A stretch of DNA of 64,000 nucleotides from Poseidonia sp. (GTDB lineage: Archaea > Thermoplasmatota > Poseidoniia > Poseidoniales > Poseidoniaceae), in the NCBI GenBank assembly GCA_016778305.1, contig JADHPT010000001.1:136457-200456 (forward strand). The letters run 5' to 3'. The translations under genes were made by a program, and so were the position numbers. Below are positions 22,831 to 60,591 of this stretch, in pieces (within the stretch, counting starts at the first letter, position 1; every line of letters begins with the position of its first letter). The notes under the pieces were generated by a model, which worked only from the letters and a program-made list of their open reading frames with translations, was not told the origin of the DNA and did no database searches.

Positions 22831-23025
22831 TCACCTCAAAACTCCATCCATGTCCATGTCAAGAGTGTTAGCATGGCCGCAGTGCCGACTAAGGCGGTGG
22901 TGCGCGTCGCCTGAAGCCGCTGCGTGAAATTGCGGAGGTACCACGTCAACACCCCGCATATGGCAACAATAACCCACAAGACATACCATGCAGGTGGATA
23001 AGGTGACACAGAAGGGCCTGTTCAC
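22831..23025 (-). CDS. small Cys/His-rich ORF (64 aa), possibly a real peptide
   Basis: FCVTLSTCMVCLVGYCCHMRG...HHRLSRHCGH. Its ATG overlaps the stop of the giant upstream gene (ATGA) and it ends 5 nt before the PqqD-like gene. Could be spurious. Confidence 0.3.
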   Translation of the reverse strand: MNRPFCVTLSTCMVCLVGYCCHMRGVDVVPPQFHAAASGDAHHRLSRHCGHANTLDMDMDGVLR

Positions 23026-26000
23026 AATGTGCCATCAAGATATTGTTGTCCGTAATAGGTCCACTGTTCTTCTGTCCAACCTGCTGGTAAGCCGCTCGCA
23101 GGTAATGGCGGGCCCGTTGGTGCGATTTCGACAGGTACCGTCGGAGCATTGATGGCTTCCTCAACGGGTTGATCTGCTGCAATAGTGGATACGTTGTTTC
23201 GGTCGCTGGTTGGAGGTCCTGAAATCGGTGCGACTTCTTTATGATATTCATTCCCTTCAAATCCGAGTTCTTCGTCTCGATTTCGGGTGCCTCGTAGCAT
23301 GAATACGAGGAGTGCGACAAATGCAATGCCTCCGATGCTCCCGCCTACCATCACAACGGAACCAAACGAATCATCTTCCGGTGGTTGTTCAAAGGATAAC
23401 ATCACCACCTGAGTAGATCTCAGTTCACCATCATCTGACGCAACGACAAACCTCACTTCTCCATCTAGCGGTCCGTTGAGATTGAGAACCTCGCAGCGAT
23501 TTTGGTTAAATTGTGGCGTTATGTGCCCTGGTGTGGCTTCAAATTGAATGCCTGTAGAATTGATCAGGCGTTTATCGCATGTAACCTGCCAACCCTCATC
23601 TGCAGATGCTGTGAGCGTGTACTGTTCTGTCATGGTTGAGGAGGAAGTATGATTCACCCAGATACTTGCCGCTGTGCCGTAATCTACGATGCCAGGGATG
23701 GATGGTGCTGCGGTCATCACCATGCTGCGTTGTTGGTCAAGAAGAATCATTGATTCGTCCATTAAGATGATTGGTAAATTTTCTTCATCAACGACACCAA
23801 TGACATCAAACCGAATGACGAATTGTGTGTTGAGGGGTGTGTCAGCAGGCACGATGACTTCAACTCGTAGTGTCACATTCGAACTAGCCGGAATGATGAG
23901 TTCGACTTCTGAACCCATTTCTTTTTGTCCCCCATCGATGGTGAAGAATGAAATGAGGCCAACTGTAGGAGGTGAAGAGGATAAGGTGGCCACTACAGAG
24001 AGACGGTTTTCTACCGCATTACCATCATTGAACAAAACAGTTTCAGCATAAAACATCCCATTCGCCATCGTTGAACCACTGTTTGATGAATGTCCGAGTG
24101 AAGGTTGCCGGACTGCGCCAGTGGCTGCCAACACTTCGACGCTGTTATCAGTCGGGTTGGAATCGATTCCCTCAGTCATGATGACTGCCTCGATATTGAT
24201 GTTGTGCAATTCGCCGGCGGCTTCCGTCATCGGAAGCATAACCCACAGGGTTACGTTACTGATGTGCATGAGGTCGTACGAGACACTCAGATCAATTGGA
24301 CCTGTGTGTTCTTCATTTTCAATTGTGAGCCACCAAGTCCATGTTTCTGGTAAATCAATTGGATTGATTCCAACTTGCGTTGGGCCGTTTCCTTTGTTTT
24401 CAACAATTAATTGTATTGCGTTTGGGATGCTAGGCGTTAGTTTCGTCGGAGCCTCTCCAATGGAAAGAGCAACATCGTGCGTGGTGCTAACACGCATCCG
24501 GTCAAAGGAATCACCTTCTACAGTCATGAAACTGCGTTGAGATTCAATGACTGGTTTAATCGTGGGGCCACGATCATTAGCGATTGCATTGTGAGGGACA
24601 TCGATAACGATTTCAAATGTGGTTGACATCCCTGAATTGAGGACTGCGTCAGGCCGAGTCGGTTGATGAACAACCCACTGACCCGCATCTTCTACCAAAA
24701 CGCTCATCGCAAAAATATCTTGTCGGGTCGCATTATTCCATATCATATATTCAAGGACGATGGATTCTCCAGCATCGACAAAATACCAATCAGAATCTAT
24801 GTCTGAAATGAGCATCACTGATGCATCGCTTATCATTGATGCAGATATTGGTATATCTGCGGATGCTACCCGACTCGTATCGTTTTGAGAACGAAGCGTG
24901 AATTCAACATCAACAATCGTATCAGGTGCAGCAGTTTCTGGAACTGTCATGGTCATCAGCACGTTGAAAACATCATCTGGCCTCAACAATACCGATGATG
25001 GTTGTGACCAAGCGAGACCGACAGACCAACCACTGGGTAGAGAAGAAGTATCAATATCCACATCAAATACATCGGTGGCATCTCCTTGATTGGTGATGCC
25101 GACCTCAAAGGTGCAGGTGTATGATGGTGGGCAACTTGGACGGACACTCGGGGGAAGGATGACGGGGATTCTGTCAGCCATCACAAGGAATTGGACGGGC
25201 ACAACGGTTGAAATGCTCGAGTATTGCATGGAACGAATTGAAACACTCATTTGTTGGAACCCGATGCTAGCGTTGGCATCTGGTTTAATCATGATTTGAA
25301 ACGGAGTAGGGGTTCCGGGAATCGTCATCAGCCCCTCCAATGGGTCGAGACTTGTCCCGGATGGACGTGCATAATAGGCATCCCACCCAGTAGGCAACCC
25401 GATCATCTCAGGAATGAAAAATTCTGAGATATTACCGGTATTCAAGATCTCGATATTGATGCTTCCCCATTCACCAGGTATTGCACCATTTGTCCCCGTC
25501 CCTTGGGCAGACACATTGTAATCTGTCATACGCACCTTCTGATCATATAAAATGACGATTTCATCAATGTAGAATCCAATGTCGGTGCCACTTGCGTCTG
25601 AGGTAAACTCAAATTTGAATTGGCTGGATGAATGGAAGAGGTCCGCTGCTACAGGGAGAAGTGGGGAGGTTGCACCTTTGTTGTTGAAGCTGAATGTATT
25701 CCAATTAGCACCGTCCGTAAAATCTTGGTCAACGGTTCCTGAAATAGTTCCTATTTCTGACCAAGCACCGAAAACGTTGATTCCATAAACCGTTAATTTA
25801 TCATTGGCGAGTGTGCTCCCAGTGTAATAAAATGAAAGTCCATTGGTTCGCAGTGGATTGCTGATAGCATCCGATAAATCCATGACAGGTGTTGTCATTA
25901 TGGACAGTGCATTGTTATTGTAGGTCGACAATTGACCGTTTCCTGCATGGCAGCTGCGACCCTTCGAAATTGATGTATCAGTACTAAGTGTCCAACCTGA

Positions 26001-26594
26001 GCCAAGAGTCCATTGTGTCGTTGCATCGCAATTGAAGTATTCATAGCCAACGGCAAAACCTTGCGACATTGCATCATTGCTTGGTACATCATCGGATATC
26101 GTTGATGTCGCACGCATGACCAAGGTATGGTTTCCCGAATACGTTGGAATGATAACAAGGTTGGCTGTATTGCTTGATCCGGGGGAAAGTGATGCCATTT
26201 GGACGGTCGTATTAACGAATTCAAAATAGGTATACTCATTGTGGAGCAATAGGACATTCACATCGATGACTCCCGATGAAGCCGTACCAATATTTTCAAC
26301 TGTCACGGTTAAGGATGTGGACACGTTGACCATTGAATCGATGACGTAGAGTTCTGCGGGACGATTAAAACCCAAAATTGGATGATTGGATGAAAACATT
26401 CTGTAATTGTCTTCATCCGTGCTTGTTGTATAGGATACTGAGACGTCGATGACACGTACGTCAACACCCGTTGGGTTGCTTGGACTCAATAGCGGCGAAG
26501 CCTTTTCGAGCCAACTCACATTCGAAAGAGGCGAACCCAGCATAATGAGGGCAAGGATAAGAGGTACGATTCTCCGCATGTTGACCATAAACAC
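23022..26594 (-). CDS. giant Ser/Thr/Asn-rich surface (S-layer/adhesin-like) glycoprotein with C-terminal TM anchor
   Basis: 1190 aa. Signal peptide MRRIVPLILALIMLGSPLS. Many N-x-S/T sequons and beta-rich repeats. Single C-terminal TM helix and a 90-aa cytoplasmic tail ending PAGWTEEQWTYYGQQYLDGTL. Confidence 0.8.
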   Translation of the reverse strand: MFMVNMRRIVPLILALIMLGSPLSNVSWLEKASPLLSPSNPTGVDVRVIDVSVSYTTSTDEDNYRMFSSNHPILGFNRPAELYVIDSMVNVSTSLTVTVENIGTASSGVIDVNVLLLHNEYTYFEFVNTTVQMASLSPGSSNTANLVIIPTYSGNHTLVMRATSTISDDVPSNDAMSQGFAVGYEYFNCDATTQWTLGSGWTLSTDTSISKGRSCHAGNGQLSTYNNNALSIMTTPVMDLSDAISNPLRTNGLSFYYTGSTLANDKLTVYGINVFGAWSEIGTISGTVDQDFTDGANWNTFSFNNKGATSPLLPVAADLFHSSSQFKFEFTSDASGTDIGFYIDEIVILYDQKVRMTDYNVSAQGTGTNGAIPGEWGSINIEILNTGNISEFFIPEMIGLPTGWDAYYARPSGTSLDPLEGLMTIPGTPTPFQIMIKPDANASIGFQQMSVSIRSMQYSSISTVVPVQFLVMADRIPVILPPSVRPSCPPSYTCTFEVGITNQGDATDVFDVDIDTSSLPSGWSVGLAWSQPSSVLLRPDDVFNVLMTMTVPETAAPDTIVDVEFTLRSQNDTSRVASADIPISASMISDASVMLISDIDSDWYFVDAGESIVLEYMIWNNATRQDIFAMSVLVEDAGQWVVHQPTRPDAVLNSGMSTTFEIVIDVPHNAIANDRGPTIKPVIESQRSFMTVEGDSFDRMRVSTTHDVALSIGEAPTKLTPSIPNAIQLIVENKGNGPTQVGINPIDLPETWTWWLTIENEEHTGPIDLSVSYDLMHISNVTLWVMLPMTEAAGELHNINIEAVIMTEGIDSNPTDNSVEVLAATGAVRQPSLGHSSNSGSTMANGMFYAETVLFNDGNAVENRLSVVATLSSSPPTVGLISFFTIDGGQKEMGSEVELIIPASSNVTLRVEVIVPADTPLNTQFVIRFDVIGVVDEENLPIILMDESMILLDQQRSMVMTAAPSIPGIVDYGTAASIWVNHTSSSTMTEQYTLTASADEGWQVTCDKRLINSTGIQFEATPGHITPQFNQNRCEVLNLNGPLDGEVRFVVASDDGELRSTQVVMLSFEQPPEDDSFGSVVMVGGSIGGIAFVALLVFMLRGTRNRDEELGFEGNEYHKEVAPISGPPTSDRNNVSTIAADQPVEEAINAPTVPVEIAPTGPPLPASGLPAGWTEEQWTYYGQQYLDGTL

Positions 26595-29199: not shown

Positions 29200-29433
29200 T
29201 TGCCGGTTCGGGTCAATTGGGACCGCATGCCGGTAAGCGTTCATGGCGATGATCGAGAGATTTTGGAAGCACTCATCCGCTATCTTCGTCAACAACACAA
29301 TGTGCGGAAACGCTCCATTGTTATGGATGATCGAGAAGATGGTGGTTTCCTGTTTTTTCTCTACCAAGTATGCGATCCTCGTTGGATTGCAGAATTTTTG
29401 AATCAGCTAGGTGGGGGTCAATCAAATGGGTGA
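29200..29433 (+). CDS. hypothetical small protein (77 aa)
   Basis: ORF overlapping the start of the next gene by 23 nt. No family recognised. Confidence 0.3.
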   Translation: MPVRVNWDRMPVSVHGDDREILEALIRYLRQQHNVRKRSIVMDDREDGGFLFFLYQVCDPRWIAEFLNQLGGGQSNG

Positions 29434-30250
29434 ACGCCAATCAATACCCCTTCCCACGGGCTCCTTTGAACTCACAGTTGTGCTTGTTGGTGTGAGCCAT
29501 CCAGGTAATTTGGGTGCGATATGCCGCTGCATGCTTAATTATGGCTTTTCAGATTTACGATTGGTCAATCCAAACTGTGGGGTAGATGACGGTGATACCA
29601 TCGCCCGAGCTAAACATGCTGCATCGGTTCTTCAACAAGCATCAATTCACGAAAGTATCGGTGAAGCCACACTCGATTGTTCAGTAGTCATGGGTACTTC
29701 AGGAAAACGTGAGGTGGGGGACAAAACCTTGTTTCGTCATTTCGTTTATCCTTGGGAAATGGTTGAACGCCTCGAAAACACGAATCAAAAAGCTGCAATT
29801 GTATTTGGTGAAGAAGGAAAGGGCCTATCAACAGAAGATCTTGCCAATTGCGATTTTTTGGTGACCTTGCCTACATGGGAAGGCTACCCTATTGCTAATC
29901 TCAGTCACGCAGTCAATGCAGTCCTCTATGAAGTTCAGCGTCATCGTATCCACACCTCATTGGGCCAGGATGCTGGTTTACCCGTTGTCGTTCCGCTCGA
30001 GCGCCTCATGAATCCAGAATTGAGGTCAACGCTCATGAAAGCGATTGAACAATATTCACAATCCCTCTCATGGCAGGAGGAACGGAAATTTTCATTTCAA
30101 CAGACCCTGAAGCGGACACTTTCACGTAGCATGCCCACAGATGACGAAGCAACACGGTTGATTGGTGGTTTGGTAGAAGGAACGACCGCCATGCAATTCA
30201 GTTCAAACAATCCTGAATGGAAAAAACACCATCGAAGAAAGTTGAACTGA
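29411..30250 (+). CDS. SPOUT (SpoU/TrmH) RNA 2'-O-methyltransferase, TrmJ-like
   Basis: TVVLVGVSHPGNLGAICRCMLNYGFSDLRLVNP matches the TrmJ-type N-terminus. C-terminal extension. Start may be the internal Met at 29426. Confidence 0.7.
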   Translation: MGVNQMGERQSIPLPTGSFELTVVLVGVSHPGNLGAICRCMLNYGFSDLRLVNPNCGVDDGDTIARAKHAASVLQQASIHESIGEATLDCSVVMGTSGKREVGDKTLFRHFVYPWEMVERLENTNQKAAIVFGEEGKGLSTEDLANCDFLVTLPTWEGYPIANLSHAVNAVLYEVQRHRIHTSLGQDAGLPVVVPLERLMNPELRSTLMKAIEQYSQSLSWQEERKFSFQQTLKRTLSRSMPTDDEATRLIGGLVEGTTAMQFSSNNPEWKKHHRRKLN

Positions 30251-30700
30251 TCAAGGTCGCCATGTCGCCATGGATTTAGGAGTTTCACGGCAGTGCATTG
30301 CTACGAGTTGCAAGCGGTTGCCATATGCAGTCTGGATATGCGGTTGAACTTGCTCGAAGGCCCATTTTGCAAGGTTCTCGGCAGTGGGTATGAAGGGGAC
30401 AATCACGGTTCTGTGCCCGTCTCCCATTGCTGCGCAAGCTTTCTTTGCTTCCTCATCCCCTTCATAGAGGACAAATGCATGGTCGATGATATCGTGGACG
30501 TAGGTTGTAAGGACACGACTGATATCTGAGAAATCCATTAACATCCCCTCTTCGGATACACCTGATTCTGTTACAATATCGCCCTCAATTTCTGCCTCAA
30601 ATCGATATCTATGGCCGTGAAGGTGCTTGCATTTTGACTTGTGGTTCGGCACACGATGGCCAGTATCAGTTTCTACATATCGTTTGATAATTGTCGTCAT
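30251..30700 (-). CDS. queD: 6-carboxy-5,6,7,8-tetrahydropterin synthase
   Basis: QueD/PTPS fold with CxxxHGH zinc motif (KCKHLHGH). Confidence 0.85.
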
Positions 30701-31860
30701 GATTCATCACTCCATTCTTCGAAATCCAGAGATGCAGAGTTAATGCAATAGCGCTCTCCGCCGTATTGTTTAGGGCCGTCATTAAACACATGACCGAGGT
30801 GAGCATCGCATTGGTTACAACGGACTTCAACTCGGAGCATACCGTGAGTTCTATCCTCCAATCGTTTGATATTGGCTTCGTTGTGTTCGCTGTGGAATGA
30901 TGGCCATCCACATCCAGAATCAAATTTCATCGTAGAGCTGAAGAGGAGCGTTTTGCAACAAATGCAGAAATAATCTCCTCCTCTTTTTTCATCCCAATAT
31001 TGGCCAGTAAATGCATGTTCTGTGCCTTGTTCACGCGTCACATGATATTGTAAGGGTGTTAATCGTTCCCGGTAATCAGCATCTTTGTGCTTGTGCTCAA
31101 TGGCCAAAGCATTCTCAAGGACTTCGTTCCAGGGCTTGATATATTCAATTGGATCCATACGACCAATGGCGTGAAAGGCCAAGATTCGCTCAACATCTGA
31201 ACCTGTTTCACCGTGACTGCGTCCTAACTCATCGGGGTCGTATGAGGTAATCGTTCGACGAAATACTTCATCAAAATCAAGGTTCAAAACCTTCACTGAA
31301 TTCATGGCGTCCTTCAAGATGCCAATCTTATCATCATCGAGATATGGCAATTCAAATGAAATACGTTCACTGCCCCAATTTCCAATCGCAAATGCATGCT
31401 CAATAGCACGATAGAATTCGGGCCGGCAATCAGGATAAATGGCGTGATCCCCGCTGTGAACACCAAGGGCAACAACAGCGTCGCTGTTGTTATTTTTGGA
31501 TCGTGAAAGCGCTGTCCCATAGAGAAGGGATGCAAATACAGCATTGCGATTTGGGACGACCGTGGCCTTCATGGTCTCCTCCTCATAGTGGCCTTTGGGT
31601 ATTTCGTCACCACTTGAAAGTAAATCACTCGAAAACAGTGCAGTTGCGGAACGCAAGTCGATAATGTGGTGCTGAACTTCAATGGAATGACTACGAAGAT
31701 ACTCAATGAGTGATGTGGCTCGTTCAAGTTCGATCTTGTGTTTTTGACCATAGTCAAAACTGAGGCAGGTTACCTTCATATTACGAGCAAGCAAATTCAA
31801 CAACAGTGAGGTTGAATCCATCCCACCACTCAACGCCATTACTGCAAACATCACAATCAT
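30697..31860 (-). CDS. queC: 7-cyano-7-deazaguanine synthase QueC fused to methionine-R-sulfoxide reductase MsrB
   Basis: N-terminal PP-loop ATPase ([16 protein letters not shown], ~235 aa) that lacks the C-terminal Cys4 zinc site. C-terminal MsrB/SelR domain ([12 protein letters not shown]; CICC and CNQC zinc pairs; catalytic RYCINSASL). Start set at ATG 31860, 2 nt after the queE stop. Confidence 0.8.
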
Positions 31861-31862
31861 TC

Positions 31863-32522
31863 CTACAAAATTCCCATCCACTTATGCGTCTGTAATGACA
31901 GCCTCCATTCCGGATGCTCCTTAACCACCTGTTCGGTTATTGCAAACAAGGCTCCGTTTTCTTCAACACTTTGCTGATCGTCGTAACAGGGTTGTAAAAA
32001 CCAATGATCAAACCCATTTCGTAACTCGTCATACATCTCCAATGGCTGGCCAACGTATACGCATTTGAGTTCATCACCGATTCGTTGGCGAATCGAAACG
32101 TTTGGATACATCTGATCCTTTGGTGAGACACATATCCAATCAATCAATTCCTCAGGTATAGCAATCGTTCCGTTGGTCTCAACCGACAGATGGTAACCCC
32201 TTCTTTTGAGGAGTCGCGCAAGTGGCCACAAATCATTCAGCATCGGCTCTCCGCCAGTGAAAATGACATTTTTTGTGTTGTATTTCAGGACCTCTCCAAG
32301 AACGTCAATAGCCGGCATAACTTCGTATTCATCGAAATTCGTATCGCACCATTCACATCGTAGATTGCAGGCACCAAATCGAATGAATACATGGGGGATT
32401 CCTGCTCTGTAACCCTCACCCTGTACCGAATGGAAAATTTCCACGATATTGTAGTCCATTGCGAGGTCCTCGGCTTTGTCGCCGACCTCATCTCCAGCGC
32501 GGTTACAATCTACTGGCTCCAT
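31863..32522 (-). CDS. queE: 7-carboxy-7-deazaguanine synthase (radical SAM)
   Basis: [26 protein letters not shown]. Confidence 0.85.
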
Positions 32523-32530
32523 TCAATCCC

Positions 32531-33106
32531 TCACAGGACGGGTTGTTGGATGAGTTGCATGAGTTCTGCTCGAGCCTCTTGCCGTTCAAAGAAGACGCCC
32601 CGCATTGCGGATGTTGTCATGATTGCTTGTTGTTTAGCAACACCACGGCATTGCATGCATCCGTGAGATGCCTCGATAATAACGGCAGTACCCAACGGTT
32701 CAAGTTCACGTTCAATGTCATCCGCAATATGCTTCGTAATGCGCTCTTGATTCTGCAGACGTCTTGCATGAAGTTCAAGAATACGAGCTAGTTTGCTAAT
32801 GCCCGCGATACGGTCAACCGGGATGTATGCAATATGTGCTCGACCACGGAAGGGTTGGAGATGGTGTTCACACGTGGATGTGAATTCAATATTTCTTAAC
32901 AAAACAATCCCATCATAACCTTCAGCGTTGAAGGTTGCCTCCAATATTTCTTTTGAATCCATACTGTATCCAGCAAAGATTTCATTCCATGAATCCACAA
33001 CACGTTCTGGTGTTCGCATGAGACCCTCACGGGAGACGTTCTCTTTGCCTTCAATGTACTCAAGAAGTATTTCAACGGCCTTCATTGCATCTGATTTCGT
33101 AGTCAT
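32531..33106 (-). CDS. folE: GTP cyclohydrolase I
   Basis: STCEHHLQPFRGRAHIAYIP, ISKLARI, HGCMQCRGV. Confidence 0.85.
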   Translation of the reverse strand: MTTKSDAMKAVEILLEYIEGKENVSREGLMRTPERVVDSWNEIFAGYSMDSKEILEATFNAEGYDGIVLLRNIEFTSTCEHHLQPFRGRAHIAYIPVDRIAGISKLARILELHARRLQNQERITKHIADDIERELEPLGTAVIIEASHGCMQCRGVAKQQAIMTTSAMRGVFFERQEARAELMQLIQQPVL

Positions 33107-33115
33107 GCTATCACT

Positions 33116-33340
33116 TCATCGTCCGTGCCTAGCATCGATTTCATCCAGTTGATCCAACAATTTACGGCACGCTGTTCGGACAGCATCCGCCAAACTGACA
33201 AATTTCTTGTCATCTCCTACATGGTTGCGTAGGTCCTCAACCAATTCGGCGGGCATGTCCAACGAAATCTTAGGCACGTCCTTGCCACAAATCTGCCATG
33301 TATAAATATTCCTAAGGTATTCACAGAGTATTATTCCCAT
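33116..33340 (-). CDS. ribbon-helix-helix (CopG/Arc-like) DNA-binding protein
   Basis: 74 aa. Predicted beta-strand KISLDMP followed by two helices. First gene of the minus-strand folE-queE-queC-queD operon. Confidence 0.5.
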   Translation of the reverse strand: MGIILCEYLRNIYTWQICGKDVPKISLDMPAELVEDLRNHVGDDKKFVSLADAVRTACRKLLDQLDEIDARHGR

Positions 33341-41846: not shown

Positions 41847-43088
41847 GTGCGGACCCTCTTATTGAATTGCGGACCCATGGTTCATTTCTCAACCTCCGGA
41901 ACAACTTCACGCCCCTCCATTGAGAATTCAGTTTATCCAGTTGGAAAGGGAATTATAATAGAAGGTGATAAAATAATCACTATTGGTGATTCAGAAGACC
42001 TGGAATTCGAATATGGAAACGACTCCGATCATCTCGTCATTGATGCAGAAGGGGGAGCAATTATTCCCGGGCTCATTGATTGCCACAGTCACCTCTTGTG
42101 GTCTGGCGACCGTTCTCAAGAAGTACGATGGAGGTTGGAAGGCAAAACGTACCGTGACATCAGCACTATGGGCGGGGGCATCCAATCAACGGTGGATGCA
42201 ACTCGGTCTTCTTCGAAAGGTGAACTTCACAAAGAAGGATATGTCCGTCTCAGAGCGGCTTTACGTTCAGGAACGACTCACATGGAAGTCAAGAGCGGAT
42301 ACGGACTTGATACAAAAACCGAGTTGGACCTCCTTGAAGTATCATCAATACTTAGTTCAGATGAAAACTTACCAACTCTGGATCCAACGTGGATGGGAGC
42401 TCATGACACGCCAAAGGAAATGACTCATGAAGCCTACATTGATTCCTTGATTCATGAGCAATTGCCGGCGATTGTAGACCAAGGGATTGCACGTTCTGCT
42501 GATGTATTTTGTGAGCCAGGTTGGTTCAGCGTTGAAGAAAGCGAGGACATTCTGAAAGCATCTCGTACAGCTGGTCTCAATCTTCGCATGCACATTGATG
42601 AATTCGAAGAATCTGGCGGCGGCCAGTTGGCAGCAGAACTCAAGGTTCAAACAGCAGATCATGCATATCACACATCTCTCGATACGCGATTGAACATGAA
42701 AGAGGCTGGAGTCATGACCGGTTTCTTACCCGGGACTCCGTATGCGATGGGTGACCCCTGGCCTAATATGTCAGAAGTACATGAATACGGCATACCTTAC
42801 ACACTCGCTACAGATTTCAACCCGAATTGCCAAACACTCAGTCTCCCCTTCATGGCATCACTCATGGTCCAGAGGTGCAGAGTTCAGCCCCTTGACGTGC
42901 TCGCTGCTATGACGGTCAATGCAGCGAAGAGTTCGCCACACACGAATGGAGATCATGGAATTATTCAAGAAGGTGCAATTGCAAACATCAATATTCTTGA
43001 CAGTCCGAACTGGGAGTCATTCTCACTCAAACCCAGCCATACGCCCTTTAGAGCTACCATATTGAATGGGAAGTTCATGACACATTGA
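41847..43088 (+). CDS. hutI: imidazolonepropionase
   Basis: Amidohydrolase fold. IPGLIDCHSHLLWSGDR, GTTHMEVKSGYGLD, RMHIDEF. Confidence 0.85.
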   Translation: MRTLLLNCGPMVHFSTSGTTSRPSIENSVYPVGKGIIIEGDKIITIGDSEDLEFEYGNDSDHLVIDAEGGAIIPGLIDCHSHLLWSGDRSQEVRWRLEGKTYRDISTMGGGIQSTVDATRSSSKGELHKEGYVRLRAALRSGTTHMEVKSGYGLDTKTELDLLEVSSILSSDENLPTLDPTWMGAHDTPKEMTHEAYIDSLIHEQLPAIVDQGIARSADVFCEPGWFSVEESEDILKASRTAGLNLRMHIDEFEESGGGQLAAELKVQTADHAYHTSLDTRLNMKEAGVMTGFLPGTPYAMGDPWPNMSEVHEYGIPYTLATDFNPNCQTLSLPFMASLMVQRCRVQPLDVLAAMTVNAAKSSPHTNGDHGIIQEGAIANINILDSPNWESFSLKPSHTPFRATILNGKFMTH

Positions 43089-44457: not shown

Positions 44458-46263
44458 TCACTCTATGAACATGTCATCTTGATATCCGGTGACCAGGTCT
44501 CCAGTACCATCTTCTTCAATGGTCACAGTACCCTCGTCGTCATCAAATTCGATAATCGTACCAAAGACTTCCTCATCATCAAAGAGTAGTCCGACATGGG
44601 ATCCGATGTCAATCTCATCGTCTTCATCATCATCTTCTGAATCCTCTTGATCATCCTCGGATTCTTCTACATCCTCTTCCTCGTAATCTTCATGATCCTC
44701 TTCGTGTTCTTCGCCATCATCGGGATCGTCGCTTTCTTCTTCCTCAACCCCTGATTGGGTTGCATCGGCTCTGTCATCCTCAACTTCCTTCATAGCTTTG
44801 GCACGCGCTCGCCATGATGGTGCTTTGATGAGGTGCAAGAACAGCGAGGAAATCATTCCCATTACAGAGAGGAGGATGAACAAAATACCATCCCAATAAA
44901 ATCCCTTGGGCATTGATGATGAATCGCCTGCGAATGGAGTGAGGGAATTGTCGCATCCACCTTCTTGATATTTCACATCACAAGGGTACGGATCGCCTTC
45001 TGCAATGTCAAATGGTGGGACAACATTGTTCGGTTCATAGAAGACTGTACCACCACTTCCATCAACTGGCCCTATGAGTCCATTGACAAGAAGAATGGCG
45101 ATCGCAATCCCGAAGGCGGTGTGCAGAATTGGCCAAACAATATCGTTCCATTGTTTGGACATCATTCGCTTTTGCATCGGGGTAGGAAATGGCTCCTCAA
45201 TTATTGATTCAACTTCATCATCCATTTCTTCGATAGCGCCAATGAATTCGGTAATGTCAATCATTCCATCATTATCGGAATCGATTTGTTCGATCAAGGC
45301 TTCAATATCTTCCCCATCAAATTCACCTTCGTAGTCATTTGTTAGGGAGGAGCGCAGTTCTTCCATTGAAACCTGGCGGTTACCGTCTTTGTCGAGATCG
45401 TTGAACATACGTTGGGCCGAAATATCATGCTCTTCCATGAGGGCGACAAGGGCATGCAGTGGACTTTCAACATCGATATTTTCGTCGCTGTCTTCATCAA
45501 GATCAAAATCTTCCTCATCCATTTCGGCCTGTGTTGCACCTTCATCGGAGTCGTCCAGGTCTTCTGAAGAATGATGTACTTCATCTGATTCGGAAGTGTG
45601 ATCCTCTTGCGACTCAGGGGCTTCGTGTTTGAGTACAACTTCCTCTTCGGAGTCTTCCGCCACTTCCTCAAGTTCTTCATCGGATTCAGCCTCCTCTTCG
45701 TCCATGTCCGCTACAATATGCTCATCAGAATGAGCATCATGATGATCTGTGTCTCCGTGAAGAATTGTTTCAAACTCATCGAGGTCGATTACCCCGTTAT
45801 CATCAGCATCAATCTCCTTGACAAGTCTGTCAACTTGAGAAGGTGGTAAATCAGCGAGGTTGAGGCTCAACAAACCTGCCTTTAACTCCGATGCATCGAT
45901 CATGCCATCAGAATTCGTATCGAATTTCTGAAATAATTTTCGAATTTGAACGCCGGTATCATGCACCCATTTTCGCAGGATATCAACCACATCGTCTGCA
46001 ACGAATACGACATCACACTCAGGACATCGGGTGGAATCAAGAGGGACTAACGCATTGCAAGCTCCACATTCCCCAAGAGCTTCTTCTGATACGCCTGAAA
46101 ATTGAGTGTTACACTCCGGACATTCTGTAGAATCCAGGGGTATCAATGCTCGACACGAACCACATTCCGCCATGGGAATACTATTTTTTCCCTCGTCACT
46201 CATCTTTCCACCGATTCCATGGAGGGCGTCTCCAATTATAATGCTTGATGGGATTTTTATCAT
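44458..46263 (-). CDS. double zinc-ribbon, four-EF-hand, two-TM highly acidic membrane protein
   Basis: 601 aa. Two zinc ribbons (ECGSCRALIPLDSTECPEC; ECGACNALVPLDSTRCPEC). Four canonical EF-hand loops (DTNSDGMIDASE, DADDNGVIDLDE, DKDGNRQVSMEE, DSDNDGMIDITE). Two TM helices flank a Cys-containing loop. Long D/E tracts. Confidence 0.7.
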   Translation of the reverse strand: MIKIPSSIIIGDALHGIGGKMSDEGKNSIPMAECGSCRALIPLDSTECPECNTQFSGVSEEALGECGACNALVPLDSTRCPECDVVFVADDVVDILRKWVHDTGVQIRKLFQKFDTNSDGMIDASELKAGLLSLNLADLPPSQVDRLVKEIDADDNGVIDLDEFETILHGDTDHHDAHSDEHIVADMDEEEAESDEELEEVAEDSEEEVVLKHEAPESQEDHTSESDEVHHSSEDLDDSDEGATQAEMDEEDFDLDEDSDENIDVESPLHALVALMEEHDISAQRMFNDLDKDGNRQVSMEELRSSLTNDYEGEFDGEDIEALIEQIDSDNDGMIDITEFIGAIEEMDDEVESIIEEPFPTPMQKRMMSKQWNDIVWPILHTAFGIAIAILLVNGLIGPVDGSGGTVFYEPNNVVPPFDIAEGDPYPCDVKYQEGGCDNSLTPFAGDSSSMPKGFYWDGILFILLSVMGMISSLFLHLIKAPSWRARAKAMKEVEDDRADATQSGVEEEESDDPDDGEEHEEDHEDYEEEDVEESEDDQEDSEDDDEDDEIDIGSHVGLLFDDEEVFGTIIEFDDDEGTVTIEEDGTGDLVTGYQDDMFIE

Positions 46264-46321: not shown

Positions 46322-47182
46322 ATGCTGGGTTTGTATACGCTTGAACATGTGTCACATGATGCCACCTATTCTTGGTTTGAAGCAGCAACAGAGACTGTTG
46401 ATGTCAACCGAATATGCATCAGTAGGCTGCCACTACGAGCGCTCTTGCGCCATGTATCACCTTCTGGCACCCGTTGTTTTTGGCTCAGTGACCATCAGGG
46501 GCCAGCATCCATTCCACCTACTTGCGACGAAGTGGAATCCCGATTGAACAAAGAATTCGATGCAATACCCTCCTTTGTTCTCCTTGAGGGTTTGGACTGG
46601 ATCTTGAATAACGATGGTGAGGAAACGGTGCTGCAATTCCTACAACGTCTTGATCAACGGTGCCGTAGCGGCAACCATGTCGTCGTTTTTCCCGTTGATC
46701 CTTTGGTCTTTTCATCACGCTTTTGGTCTCGACTTCATTCAATAGCGCCCATGTTGCAAGGGCATCATGGATACGACGAAACGGACAATATCCCGTCTGT
46801 GACATCCAACTATGAGCCCGACTTGCCAGACACCACTCAACCAAAAGAGCAGGAACGAACGTTGGTACAATTGGTCGAGTTGCCGCGACGCGGATTTAAC
46901 AAAACCATTCTTTCAAAACGTATGCTTCAATGGAAAAGGATGGGCATTGATATTTCTGATTTGGAGCCTGCAATGGCGACTGAAGACATGGACAAAGCCC
47001 ATGGGATTTATTCCGAGGTTGAATCATTGGTTAAGGTTGCAGTCGATTTATGTCGCCTCGTTGACGCGAGCCGAGATAAATTAACCGTTACAGAGCGAGA
47101 GATCATGACATTCAAAATCATGCAACTTTCTTCCGTCAGTGAGGTAAAACAGCGACTAGAAGAAATCCTCGCCACGAGATAG
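46322..47182 (+). CDS. DUF835-like domain protein
   Basis: TRCFWLSDHQGPASIPPTCDEVESRLNKEFDAIPSFVLLEGLDWILNNDGEETVLQFLQRLDQRCRSGNHVVVFPVDPLVF fits the archaeal DUF835 pattern (family name recalled from memory). Confidence 0.5.
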   Translation: MLGLYTLEHVSHDATYSWFEAATETVDVNRICISRLPLRALLRHVSPSGTRCFWLSDHQGPASIPPTCDEVESRLNKEFDAIPSFVLLEGLDWILNNDGEETVLQFLQRLDQRCRSGNHVVVFPVDPLVFSSRFWSRLHSIAPMLQGHHGYDETDNIPSVTSNYEPDLPDTTQPKEQERTLVQLVELPRRGFNKTILSKRMLQWKRMGIDISDLEPAMATEDMDKAHGIYSEVESLVKVAVDLCRLVDASRDKLTVTEREIMTFKIMQLSSVSEVKQRLEEILATR

Positions 47183-48724
47183 TAGGCCATGTTCTGCTTC
47201 CAAGCGTGCAAGCCATCCTCCATCTTGCAATTGACTGCTGAGCTCAATGAGGTCATTGGAAGTTGAGCGGTCTCCCCTTAGGGGTTCCACGATGGTTCGA
47301 ACGAGTCCTTTGAAGCCATGGACGTGTGGTGCAGGGTTCAATTCTTCGTGCTCGAGGGCTTCGCAAGAAATCAAAGCCTCACAGGCGAGGATTTCAGCAA
47401 GATGCTGAGTTGATTCCAATAAATTCCATGCTGATGTAGCACCCATGCTGACGTGATCTTCCTGGCCAGCAGAGGTTGAGGTAGAGAACGCTGTCCGTGG
47501 GCCAGCTCTTCCATGTAATTCAGATAATGATGCTCCCGCCACATACTGTACAATCATGAGTCCCGACTCCAAACCTGAATTATGAGTTAAAAAGGCGGGC
47601 AAATCACTACGTGCAGGATCCAGCATTTGGTCCATCCTTCGCTCAGAAATAGATCCGAGTTCAAACAGTCCAAGCGTCATTGAATCGCAAACCATGGCTA
47701 CAATTTCACCGTGGAAATTGCCCTGTGAAAGCACTTCATGTGAACCAGGTTGTGAAGGGTTAGGGAATATGAGGGGATTGTCCGTAGCACTGTTGATTTC
47801 AATTCGAATCATTTCGTCTAGACGACGGTAGGCCTCCCAAACAGCACCGTGAACTTGAGGAGCGCAGCGAAATGAATAGGGGTCCTGCACTTTATCACAA
47901 TCCGTATGACTGGCCATGATGGGTGAGTTGGCGAGAAGCGTATTGAGTCGTTGGGCTATCGTTCGTTGACCGGGGTGCGGCCTGGCATTATGCACGAGCG
48001 GGTTTGCCGGTGTTAAACTGCATTTCCTAGCCTCCATCGACGTTGCTAGGATTACATCTGCCAAGACAAGAAGTTCACCTAATGCTTGGTGTGCAAGAAT
48101 TGCAAATGAACACATTTGACTTGTACCATTGATGAGGGACAGTCCGTCCTTAGCCGTGAGCGAAACGGGGAGTATTTCATGTTGCTCAAGTACATCATTT
48201 GTTGGTAGCCTCTCACCATTCAAGAGAACTTCTCCTTCCCCAATGAGTGTTAATGCGAGGTGTGACAGCGGAGCAAGATCACCACTGGCCCCCAGACTCC
48301 CAATACGCGGGACAAAGGGGTGAATTCCGATGTTGAGGTAGGTGACGAGTTGGTTGATACAATCGGGATGGATGCCTGAGTGCCCTTTGCACAAGGAATT
48401 CAATCTGATTACCATCATGCATCGAACGGCTTCAACACTCATCGCTGGACCTATTGCAGTGGCGTGAGATCGGATAAGATTCAATTGCAAGAGAGCAAGA
48501 TCGTCTTGGGAAATACGTTCGTGTACCAGAGCGCCAAAACCAGTATTAATGCCATAGACGGTTTCATTTTCATCCAAAATCCGGTCTACTACGGCGCGTG
48601 CTGCATGAATTTTTGGCCAAGCATCTTGTGATACTTGAACGGTAGCGTGAAACCGTGCAACCATCATAATTTCAGCGGGTGTCAGTGTTTCACCATCGAG
48701 GTGTATTGTGAGGGGATCGTTCAT
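47156..48724 (-). CDS. hutH: histidine ammonia-lyase
   Basis: MIO-forming GSLGASGDLAPLSH. ~520 aa aromatic amino acid lyase fold. Confidence 0.9.
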   Translation of the reverse strand: MNDPLTIHLDGETLTPAEIMMVARFHATVQVSQDAWPKIHAARAVVDRILDENETVYGINTGFGALVHERISQDDLALLQLNLIRSHATAIGPAMSVEAVRCMMVIRLNSLCKGHSGIHPDCINQLVTYLNIGIHPFVPRIGSLGASGDLAPLSHLALTLIGEGEVLLNGERLPTNDVLEQHEILPVSLTAKDGLSLINGTSQMCSFAILAHQALGELLVLADVILATSMEARKCSLTPANPLVHNARPHPGQRTIAQRLNTLLANSPIMASHTDCDKVQDPYSFRCAPQVHGAVWEAYRRLDEMIRIEINSATDNPLIFPNPSQPGSHEVLSQGNFHGEIVAMVCDSMTLGLFELGSISERRMDQMLDPARSDLPAFLTHNSGLESGLMIVQYVAGASLSELHGRAGPRTAFSTSTSAGQEDHVSMGATSAWNLLESTQHLAEILACEALISCEALEHEELNPAPHVHGFKGLVRTIVEPLRGDRSTSNDLIELSSQLQDGGWLARLEAEHGLLSRGEDFF

Positions 48725-50811
48725 TCTATCACCTCTCGCATTCTCATAAGCAAGCCGGCATCCACACGGTGAGGGGTTGTGACCGTCAGGAGAGGTTCGT
48801 GTTCCATTGCACGTTGAATAGCGGCCTCGGCACCTTCATTGCGAGCCCATGCCCTACGAGCAACGCCATTGTTCACATCCCAATGCAACATGGACTGCAA
48901 CCTTCGTTCAGCCTCTGGAGAGCCATCCAATAGAAGGCCAAATCCACCGTTAATGACTTCGCCCCATCCGACCCCCCCACCATTGTGAATGCTGACCCAT
49001 GTGGCACCTCTGAAGGCGTCACCAATCACGTTGTGTATGGCCATATCTGCGGTGAACATCGACCCGTCACGAATGTTTGCAGTTTCACGATATGGGCTAT
49101 CCGTTCCTGAAACATCGTGATGATCTCTGCCGAGTACAACTGGGCCCTCAATTTCGCCAGATGCAATTGCTCGGTTCATAGCTAGTGCAATTTCCCGACG
49201 ACCAATGTCGTCTGCATACAGGATACGGGCTTGACTCCCGACAACCAGGTTATTTTCACCTGCCTGCTCAATCCAGCGTATGTTGTCAAGAATTTGTTGT
49301 CGGACATCTATGGGTGCTTTGGCGAGCATTGAGTGGAGGACTCTCGCTGCAATTTCATCTGTCTTTTTCAAATCTGATTCCTTCCCGCTCGCACATACCC
49401 ATCGATACGGTCCAAATCCATAGTCAAAGCAAAGCGGACCCATGATGTCCTCGACATAGGAAGGATATCGGAAACTACCATCTTCTTCAATCACATCGGC
49501 ACCTGCTCGTGATGCCTCGAGCAAAAATGCATTGCCGTAATCCCAAAAATACATGCCTCTGTGTGACATCATGTTGATTGCATCTGCATGCCTGCGTAGC
49601 GTGGCTTGAACTTCAGTTACGAATCGTTCTGGTTCGTTCACCATCATATTCGTACTTTCTTCATAGGTGAAATCTGCGGGATAGTATCCGCCTTGGTAGG
49701 GATTGTGCAGGCTCGTCTGATCACTTCCCAAATCTACGCGAACCTCTCTCTCAACACATCGTTCCCATAATTCGACGATGTTTCCAACATAGCCGATTGA
49801 AATGGGTCTCATTTCCTCGGCAGCGGCGACCATTTGGTCAATCGCATCGTCCATGGAGTCGGTGACGGTTGTAAGCCAACCTTGCTGGTGACGTTTTTCG
49901 GCAGCATGGCGGTTGGTTTCGGCAATGATACAAGCGGCACCAGCAATCGTGGCAGCTTTTGCTTGGGCGCCCGACATGCCTCCCAAACCACTCGTTACAA
50001 ACGTCACGCCATTCAATGAAGAATCATCGTTCAATCCGAGGTGCATACGTGCGGCATTGAGCAATGTGATGGTTGTGCCGTGAACGATTCCCTGCGGGCC
50101 AATGTACATGTAGGATCCAGCAGTCATTTGACCGTATTGTGACACTCCAAGAGCATTCATGCGTTCATAATCATCTTGACGAGAATAATTGGGGATTACC
50201 ATCCCGTTGGTCACGACGACTCTTGGTGCACTGGCAGATGAAGGAAACAATCCAAGGGGGTGACCAGAGTACATGACCAAGGTTTGTTGGTCAGTCATCT
50301 TAGAGAGATATTGCATCACCAATCGGTACTGCGCCCAATTTTGGAATACTGAGCCGTTGCCGCCATAGGTAATGAGTTCGTCAGGAAATTGGGCGACAGC
50401 GGGGTCAAGATTGTTTTGAATCATCAGCATAATTGCGGCTGCCTGTGGTGTCGTAGCGGGATAGTGGTCGAGAGGGTGGGCTTTCATAGGATATTGATCT
50501 GGCTTGAACCTACGCATAATAATGCGACCATAGGTGTTGAGTTCATCAAGAAATTCAGGCATGAGTGTTTCGTGATGCGCCGGCACAAAGTATCGAAGAG
50601 CATTTTGCAAAGCCAATACCTTTTCATCAGCAGATAAAATTTGACGTCGATTGGGTGCATGGTCTACATCGGTATCGATTGCTTTGCGGGGTGGCAATTC
50701 ATCAGGGATTCCCTCCGCAATGTACTGGCGAAATACCTCAATTGAGTCCACCATGGTTGAGCGAGAATGAAGGATGTCCTTGAGCCTTGTTCCCGCTACC
50801 GCACAAATCAC
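48721..50811 (-). CDS. hutU: urocanate hydratase, long form with ~120-aa N-terminal extension
   Basis: GNGSVFQNW, YGQMTAGSYMYIGPQGIVHGT, GLGGMSGAQ. 4-nt overlap with hutH. Confidence 0.9.
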   Translation of the reverse strand: MICAVAGTRLKDILHSRSTMVDSIEVFRQYIAEGIPDELPPRKAIDTDVDHAPNRRQILSADEKVLALQNALRYFVPAHHETLMPEFLDELNTYGRIIMRRFKPDQYPMKAHPLDHYPATTPQAAAIMLMIQNNLDPAVAQFPDELITYGGNGSVFQNWAQYRLVMQYLSKMTDQQTLVMYSGHPLGLFPSSASAPRVVVTNGMVIPNYSRQDDYERMNALGVSQYGQMTAGSYMYIGPQGIVHGTTITLLNAARMHLGLNDDSSLNGVTFVTSGLGGMSGAQAKAATIAGAACIIAETNRHAAEKRHQQGWLTTVTDSMDDAIDQMVAAAEEMRPISIGYVGNIVELWERCVEREVRVDLGSDQTSLHNPYQGGYYPADFTYEESTNMMVNEPERFVTEVQATLRRHADAINMMSHRGMYFWDYGNAFLLEASRAGADVIEEDGSFRYPSYVEDIMGPLCFDYGFGPYRWVCASGKESDLKKTDEIAARVLHSMLAKAPIDVRQQILDNIRWIEQAGENNLVVGSQARILYADDIGRREIALAMNRAIASGEIEGPVVLGRDHHDVSGTDSPYRETANIRDGSMFTADMAIHNVIGDAFRGATWVSIHNGGGVGWGEVINGGFGLLLDGSPEAERRLQSMLHWDVNNGVARRAWARNEGAEAAIQRAMEHEPLLTVTTPHRVDAGLLMRMREVIE

Positions 50812-59544: not shown

Positions 59545-60591
59545 ATGATGAGTCCTTTAGTTGAGTGCGTGCCAAACATTTCCGAAGGTCGCGATTTAGA
59601 GAAAATAGACAAAATTGTCAATTCAGTTCGCCAAATTGACGGATGCACGGTGCTCGGAGTTGAACCAGACCACGATTACAACCGAACCGTCATCACCTTC
59701 GCAGGTGCTCCAGGACCTGTATTAGAAGGGGCAGTAGCACTGATCCTCAAAAGCATCGAGCTTCTTGACATGCGCGAACATAAGGGCGAGCATCCACGTT
59801 TGGGAGTTGTTGATGTATGTCCCTTCATCCCCTTAAACGATATGACCATGGATGAGGCTGCTGACCTCGCAAGGGCTGCAGTCGATAAAGTCGCTAACGT
59901 CGCACACGTCCCATTATTTCTCTACGGGGCGGCAGCATCCCACAAGGATCGTTACCTGCTCTCCACATTGAGAAAGGGGGAATATGAAGGCCTTGAAGCA
60001 CGGTTGACGGGAAATGAAAGCACCCATCAAAAAACAACACGTATGCCGGATGCCGGTACAAGTGAATGGACGGAAGTTGTTTCCAAATCAGGTGGCATCA
60101 CCATTGGTGCTCGATCTATACTGGTAGCCTACAATGTTAATATCGGTGAATCAGATGCGAGCGTTGCCAAAAAAATAGCCTCCATTGTTCGTAGCAGTGG
60201 GCGGCTTCTCAAATCAGAGGCAGGTGTTCGGATTCGGACAAGTGGAATGCTTCCGATGGTACAAGGAATGGGAGTCCCCTTAGAGGAATTAGGTATCAGT
60301 CAAGTTTCCATGAATCTTAGGGATGTAGAGCAGTGCCCGTTGCATTTGGCATTTATGGCATGCAAGAGTATCGCAAGCGATCATGGTGTAGAGGTAGTAG
60401 GTAGTGAAATCGTAGGCCTCGTACCACTGAGTGCAGTACTACAAACGGGAGCATTCTTTTCACCACAGGAAACAGATGAGGAAAAACTGGTTCAGGCAGC
60501 GGTGCAAGGACTTGGCCTGAATGAGCATCATGACTTTGATCCTAAAACAGGAATCATAGAATGGGCCCTCGCTGCTGAGGTGGTTCAATGA
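59545..60591 (+). CDS. glutamate formimidoyltransferase (FtcD N-terminal-type domain)
   Basis: CVPNISEGR, NRTVITFAG, HPRLGVVDVCPF. Confidence 0.85.
   Translation: MMSPLVECVPNISEGRDLEKIDKIVNSVRQIDGCTVLGVEPDHDYNRTVITFAGAPGPVLEGAVALILKSIELLDMREHKGEHPRLGVVDVCPFIPLNDMTMDEAADLARAAVDKVANVAHVPLFLYGAAASHKDRYLLSTLRKGEYEGLEARLTGNESTHQKTTRMPDAGTSEWTEVVSKSGGITIGARSILVAYNVNIGESDASVAKKIASIVRSSGRLLKSEAGVRIRTSGMLPMVQGMGVPLEELGISQVSMNLRDVEQCPLHLAFMACKSIASDHGVEVVGSEIVGLVPLSAVLQTGAFFSPQETDEEKLVQAAVQGLGLNEHHDFDPKTGIIEWALAAEVVQ

Follow-up and report, generated by a model that had tools for sequence, protein, structure and literature searches.

Why would an enzyme of nucleobase biosynthesis carry a methionine sulfoxide reductase at its C-terminus and, at the same time, lack the zinc site of its own family? 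The question is raised by a gene in a 64,000-nucleotide stretch of Poseidonia sp. DNA (GenBank assembly GCA_016778305.1, contig JADHPT010000001.1, positions 136,457 to 200,456), which as a whole is called the window below. On its minus strand, at 30697..31860, an intact open reading frame (ORF) of 387 amino acids (aa) plus stop joins a domain of the QueC family, known for synthesis of 7-cyano-7-deazaguanine (preQ0), to a domain of the MsrB family. We consider it probable that the product is a bifunctional QueC-MsrB, that it originated by merger of two adjacent, translationally coupled genes of the preQ0 operon, and that its halves act independently of each other. The first-pass annotation of the window took this architecture for an undescribed one, and full-text literature searches indeed gave no paper on a QueC-MsrB fusion, nor any description of a QueC devoid of the zinc cysteines (Cys-less QueC). 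The widespread clade of zinc-free QueC to which the N-terminal half belongs is more notable than the fusion itself.

Two halves of one protein

Pfam profile searches, proposed by the first-pass annotation, matched both expected families. The N-terminal half corresponds to QueC (Pfam PF06508) over aa 6-231, with an E-value of 8.8e-38 and a score of 130.3 bits (gathering threshold 22), and its predicted structure superposes on Bacillus subtilis QueC and on Cap9, as expected of a QueC fold. The domain proper, with a PP-loop ATPase fold, spans aa 1-243 (31132..31860; all features of the fused gene lie on the minus strand). It contains the PP-loop S11-G-G-M-D-S16 (31813..31830), a motif that binds the pyrophosphate of ATP (PMC13639016), and the sequence Y142-P-D144-C145 (31426..31437), which phmmer aligns to Y129 and D131 of B. 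subtilis QueC, two residues reported to keep the deazaguanine substrate in place (PMC13639016). Both motifs are invariant in 86 fused proteins and 84 standalone relatives. Met14, situated in the PP-loop, and Met97 are invariant as well.

Structural work describes the zinc motif of the QueC family as highly conserved (PMC13639016). In the window protein, however, the C-x8-C-x2-C-x2-C site is missing, and its four ligand columns are occupied by S206, H216, T219 and D222 (segment aa 206-222, 31195..31245). These columns were assigned in an alignment of 150 cluster representatives from an exhaustive HMMER search with B. subtilis QueC, whose register was confirmed by many database homologues with all four cysteines (CCCC). 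Many close homologues read T-C-Y ... S-C-G-K-C-G-S-C-x-E-R, while the window protein has T-S-Y at the first ligand, and GVCETDF of canonical QueC becomes GVHSGDH. The N-terminal half is thus, as first annotated, a genuine member of QueC family without the four cysteines (Cys4); the cysteine-free stretch was also correctly recognized, and only its exact register needed to be fixed. Among 241 fused proteins, the first column is serine in 239, the second is S, D, H or N, the third is T or S, and the fourth is aspartate in all 241. The remaining two proteins carry cysteine at the first position only. Because the second column is so variable, these substitutions argue against a new metal site. The segment is followed by a C-terminal helix (aa 244-266, DPIEY..W..VL..AL.., 31063..31131), delimited by AlphaFold2 (AF2) secondary structure and alignment, which joins the two domains in the fusion. 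Its WxxVLxxAL core, up to about aa 254, is found in standalone Cys-less QueCs as well. Compared with canonical QueC, the window protein differs in the replaced zinc cysteines, the GVHSGDH stretch, the additional helix, a score below the NCBIfam equivalog cut-off and the fused MsrB.

The C-terminal half (aa 267-381, 30718..31062) is a complete MsrB, as the first-pass annotation stated. It matches SelR (PF01641) with an E-value of 2.1e-50 and 170 bits against 24.9, and it passes the NCBIfam model TIGR00357 with 174.3 bits against a cut-off of 113.05. Two CxxC pairs for zinc (C299/C302 and C348/C351), the resolving Cys317 (GCGWPSF) and the catalytic Cys372 (RYCINS) are in place, in likeness to solved MsrBs; cysteines 299, 301, 302, 317, 348, 351 and 372 are all invariant in the 241 fused proteins. 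MsrBs of known structure (e.g. 3cez, E. coli 6sym) are 49-56% identical to the window domain, with TM-scores of 0.86-0.90, the upper values being those of the Foldseek comparison of the modelled half with 3cez (TM 0.90, 56% identity). Unlike them, the window domain lacks its own start and continues from the C-terminus of QueC.

Full-length fusion was modelled by AlphaFold2 from an alignment of 86 fused sequences, with a predicted local distance difference test (pLDDT) of 90.9 and a predicted template modelling score (pTM) of 0.84. When the QueC half alone was modelled with standalone homologues, pLDDT reached 94.6 and pTM 0.92; residues 201-230, which comprise the former zinc segment, have pLDDT of 93-96 in this model.

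More than 240 distinct fused homologues (representatives of clusters at 90% identity) were found, with all catalytic residues invariant. The best matches of two database searches were 120 fused proteins each and nothing else. The homologues, composed of QueC and SelR, are 323-405 aa long (nearly all 376-405) and share 59-98% identity with the window protein. Their sources are ENA, JGI, NCBI, Logan and Tara, in some cases contigs longer than 1 Mb, and all homologues with a taxonomic name belong to Poseidonia, Poseidoniaceae or Poseidoniales (Marine Group II archaea). Hundreds of conserved homologues with invariant motifs imply that the fusion is neither a product of chance nor a pseudogene. Both forms of the locus occur in single-cell genomes, the fused one in L118 (AH-273-F07) and a split one in L137. 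In public databases the fusion goes by one half only: JGI names it just QueC, and NCBI just MsrB (peptide-methionine (R)-S-oxide reductase), since the score of the QueC half does not reach the cut-off of the equivalog model TIGR00364. The latter name hides QueC, and genomes of Poseidoniales may consequently appear QueC-less.

Two loci deserve separate mention. A contig labelled as Phycisphaerae bacterium MED703 (L131) bears a complete operon of Poseidoniales type with a fused gene of 365 aa, and is probably mis-binned archaeal DNA. In another contig (L123, 6001-7074) the queC frame is broken after about 93 aa and followed by MsrB of the 365-aa type, probably due to a sequencing frameshift or because the gene is a pseudogene.

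Operon order and distribution of zinc-free QueC

The fused gene lies between queE and queD and is the sole queC of a folE-queE-queC-queD operon, in accord with the first-pass annotation. Upstream are folE, encoding GTP cyclohydrolase I (32531..33106), and queE, encoding the radical-SAM 7-carboxy-7-deazaguanine synthase (31863..32522); downstream is queD, encoding 6-carboxytetrahydropterin synthase (30251..30700). All three are on the minus strand and were identified by Pfam and NCBIfam. The queE stop codon TAG is separated from the ATG of the fusion by the two nucleotides GA, and the TGA of the fusion shares an ATGA overlap with the ATG of queD. No second queC or msrB was found by tblastn within the window.

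A taxonomic survey suggested by the first-pass annotation found the fusion in Poseidoniales, while Cys-less QueC is distributed far more widely, in marine bacteria and viruses as well. A scan of contigs from one genome per species gave at least 591 loci, of which the best 80 were inspected; these include Poseidoniaceae, Thalassarchaeaceae, Marine Group III (MGIII), Pirellulaceae and other Planctomycetota, and Neomarinimicrobiota. The archaeal loci share the gene order rhh-folE-queE-queC-[msrB]-queD, and a SpoU methyltransferase gene converges with it. It is the state of msrB that varies. The gene is fused to queC in 30 of the best 80 loci, half of them with a product of about 376-388 aa and half with one of 365-371 aa. 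In 17 loci it is separate, located in another frame with its own ATG, which either overlaps the queC stop as ATGA or lies a few nucleotides away. In nine others msrB is absent and queC is directly followed by queD. A further 17 loci are bacterial (marine Planctomycetota and Neomarinimicrobiota), and none of them has msrB nearby. QueC is Cys-less in the fused, split and msrB-less archaeal loci and in the 17 bacterial ones alike.

The split and fused forms differ solely by a change of frame. At least three fusion junctions and two MsrB subtypes can be distinguished. The long form retains the N-terminal segment of MsrB, Y-R-E-R-L-T-x-L-Q-Y; the 365-aa form has 14 residues fewer at this segment and the other MsrB subtype; in the 371-aa form the junction is the short one and MsrB is of the first subtype. 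In a neighbour-joining tree of QueCs, drawn without support values, those of Poseidoniales form one clade, in which QueCs with fused, split and absent msrB are intermingled. This clade also takes in a few viral sequences, and Cys4 forms stay outside.

Standalone Cys-less proteins of about 260 aa were among the nearest relatives of the QueC half in the exhaustive search. A second Cys-less type, S-D-S-S, is interleaved with Cys4 forms. One viral QueC of this type (P0132) reads Y-P-D-T in place of Y-P-D-C and apparently dispenses with that conserved cysteine, too. Of at least 600 IMG/VR stretches matching the QueC half only, the best 80 were analysed: 79 encode Cys-less QueC, none has MsrB, and in 58 further preQ0 genes lie near queC. 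The differing orders of these genes and their 22-48% identity indicate independent viral clusters rather than mis-binned archaeal DNA. Among cultured viruses, QueC of a Baltic Flavobacterium phage is Cys-less. Mycobacterium phage Rosebush, whose DNA contains dPreQ0, retains the CCCC site and was for this reason dropped as an experimental proxy for the Cys-less enzyme.

Some viral and other relatives show peculiarities of their own. On an 81-kb IMG/VR contig (L004, 6031-15924), folE, queE and Cys-less queC lie beside genes for an AAA+ ATPase resembling replication factor C and for a family-B DNA polymerase; folE bears an N-terminal extension of about 130 aa. The contig resembles viruses of Marine Group II archaea, and the position of its QueC within the Poseidoniales clade of a rough tree hints at gene exchange between virus and host. 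Four relatives of the QueC half (P0124, P0126, P0135 and P0138) hold inteins, with the QueC match interrupted at about query residues 141-146, i.e. at Y-P-D-C145. The conserved cysteine of this motif may serve there as the extein +1 nucleophile. Another relative (P0134) is an HNH-QueC fusion.

A natural clade without Cys4, present in hundreds of marine genomes and viral contigs and usually accompanied by complete preQ0 gene sets, suggests that zinc is dispensable for the chemistry of QueC, and offers enzymologists a ready test case. Adaptation to zinc sparing was considered and set aside: FolE retains its zinc-ligand motifs CEHH and HGCMQC, and MsrB retains both CxxC pairs. QueD, too, belongs to a family of zinc enzymes.

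Origin of the fusion and its alternatives

The observed domain identities, motifs, distribution and gene order can be reconciled in the following way. In the Poseidoniales operon rhh-folE-queE-queC-msrB-queD, queC and msrB would be translationally coupled neighbours that merged within this order of archaea. The N-terminal domain, judged by its family and gene context, would be a zinc-independent QueC converting 7-carboxy-7-deazaguanine to preQ0 with ATP and ammonia, in the service of archaeosine synthesis. Polar residues (S/x/T/D) stand in place of the four zinc cysteines, followed by the clade-specific C-terminal helix. The C-terminal domain is an ordinary 2-Cys zinc MsrB that would reduce Met-R-sulfoxide in proteins with the help of thioredoxin. 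Each domain would work on its own, and the sole effect of the fusion would be to tie MsrB to a housekeeping operon at a fixed 1:1 ratio of expression. The series of fused, split and absent msrB within one order represents a clean case of merging of adjacent genes, in which the functional meaning of such fusions can be probed.

Several points weigh against this interpretation. Firstly, the QueC half scores 127.9 against TIGR00364, below the cut-off of 150.3. Secondly, replacement of the four cysteines by alanine abolished the function of QatC, a relative of QueC (PMC13639016), so that activity of QueC without zinc is a proposal from its context. Thirdly, the pTM of the full-length model hints at a fixed arrangement of the two domains. 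Finally, adjacency of queC and msrB throughout the order, together with recurrent fusion at differing junctions, could reflect selection for physical coupling instead of neutral merging.

The last two points lead to the alternative that survives best, although we regard it as rather doubtful: the two domains are functionally coupled. Tethered MsrB would repair oxidised methionines of preQ0 enzymes, for example Met14 and Met97, or it would serve as a redox switch linked to thioredoxin, adjusting the synthesis of preQ0 and archaeosine to the oxidative, sunlit habitat of these archaea. Such a role agrees with the position of msrB, which in most operons of Poseidoniales follows queC and precedes queD, and the three or more junction types and two MsrB subtypes suggest repeated fixation; the connecting helix is confidently predicted in the full-length model and both methionines are invariant. 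However, a search for covariation showed no link between these methionines and MsrB; QueCs of viruses, of bacteria and of archaeal operons lacking msrB have them without exception, too. Nine Poseidoniales operons do without msrB, and the gene is missing from the surroundings of all the viral and bacterial Cys-less queC genes inspected. Neighbouring genes that overlap by ATGA are readily fused by a single indel, and literature searches gave no biochemical precedent for coupling. Of the two explanations offered by the first-pass annotation, co-regulation of methionine sulfoxide repair with preQ0 synthesis is the one we favour, as it fits the adjacency of queC and msrB across Poseidoniales; a functional link between the two processes is possible.

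MsrB is likewise a module of multidomain proteins in MsrA-MsrB and in PilB, a fusion of thioredoxin, MsrA and MsrB (3e0m, 5fa9, 7e43, 3hcg), but the partners there share a repair pathway, whereas the partner in the window is an enzyme of nucleobase biosynthesis with no known redox link. A precedent for QueC with an extra domain in deazaguanine clusters is Gat-QueC of archaea and phages, in which a glutamine amidotransferase is joined to QueC (Hutinet et al. 2019, PMC6884629; the paper mentions neither zinc nor cysteine). Gat is N-terminal and belongs to the same pathway, that of G+ formation, while MsrB has no known role in it.

A broader scenario, which we hold to be unlikely, extends the coupling to the history of the whole clade. 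Zinc-free QueC would have had a single origin, perhaps in marine viruses that use deazaguanines for DNA modification, and would have replaced the canonical zinc enzyme in several lineages abundant in ocean plankton, namely Poseidoniales, marine Planctomycetota and Neomarinimicrobiota. Repeated welding to MsrB would then have followed in Poseidoniales, through a physical or regulatory tie between preQ0-archaeosine synthesis and repair of oxidative damage in sunlit surface water.

It is highly improbable that the QueC-like half is something other than a preQ0 synthase, i.e. that it stops at the amide (ADG) or conjugates deazaguanine to protein in the manner of Cap9 or QatC. The operon, complete and conserved across an order, has no other queC, and the protein retains the Tyr/Asp pair which in B. 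subtilis QueC and Cap9 is devoted to the deazaguanine moiety (CDG/NDG), and which is Thr/Thr in QatC. Cap9 (type IV CBASS) and QatC (QatABCD) differ from the window protein in retaining the Cys4 zinc motif, required in QatC (PMC13639016), and in having CD-NTase or QatABD as partners. No such defence partners (CD-NTase, QatA, QatB or QatD) were detected by PADLOC among the seven proteins of the operon and its neighbourhood, where it reported a weak partial QueC match of 47.8 bits. A role of defence type is therefore unlikely.

The other explanation in the first-pass annotation, that MsrB with its own Cys4 zinc site replaces structurally or chemically the site lost by QueC, deserves very little credence. 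Its appeal stems from the presence of both features in one protein, where just one helix separates MsrB from the former zinc segment. Nevertheless, the same Cys-less QueC with the same helix exists without fused MsrB in 17 split and nine msrB-less Poseidoniales operons, in 17 bacterial genomes and on 79 viral contigs, and the former zinc segment is confidently modelled when the QueC half stands alone. Loss of the zinc site characterises a large clade of marine and viral QueCs, whatever the state of msrB; compensation by MsrB is therefore not supported. An assembly or frameshift artefact uniting two separate genes, a possibility named in the first-pass annotation, is practically negligible: a frame change alone separates the split from the fused form, but the window ORF is intact and the fused form recurs in more than 240 distinct sequences from five sources, including contigs above 1 Mb and a single-cell genome.

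Surroundings of the operon

At the head of the operon lies an ORF of 74 aa (33116..33340, minus strand), which has tblastn matches in nearly all archaeal loci and no match in Pfam or among PDB sequences. Its sequence (KISLDMPAELVEDLRNHV...SLADAVRTACRKLL) resembles a ribbon-helix-helix DNA-binding protein (hence rhh in the gene order), and we propose it as a candidate regulator of the operon on the basis of this resemblance. On the other side, a gene for a SpoU-family RNA methyltransferase (29411..30250, plus strand), recognized by Pfam, converges with the operon, an arrangement conserved in Poseidoniales.

Other possible starts of the fused gene are GTG 31881 (upstream), GTG 31854 and ATG 31851, the last of which agrees with N-termini of homologues. 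A scan for promoters and terminators employed patterns of bacterial consensus and is hence uninformative here. Neither tgtA nor arcS turned up within the window. The genes around the operon are chromosomal and archaeal, coding for ribosomal proteins, TsaD/Kae1, tRNA-intron endonuclease, proteasome ATPase and methionyl-tRNA synthetase (MetRS).

Further away, the window carries a set of histidine-utilisation genes (41847-43088, 47156-50811 and 59545-60591), which comprises aromatic amino-acid (histidine) ammonia-lyase, urocanase, formiminotransferase and an amidohydrolase. Two large genes on the minus strand complete the picture: an ORF of 1190 aa without Pfam match (23022-26594), and a gene for a 601-aa protein with EF-hand calcium-binding domains (44458-46263).
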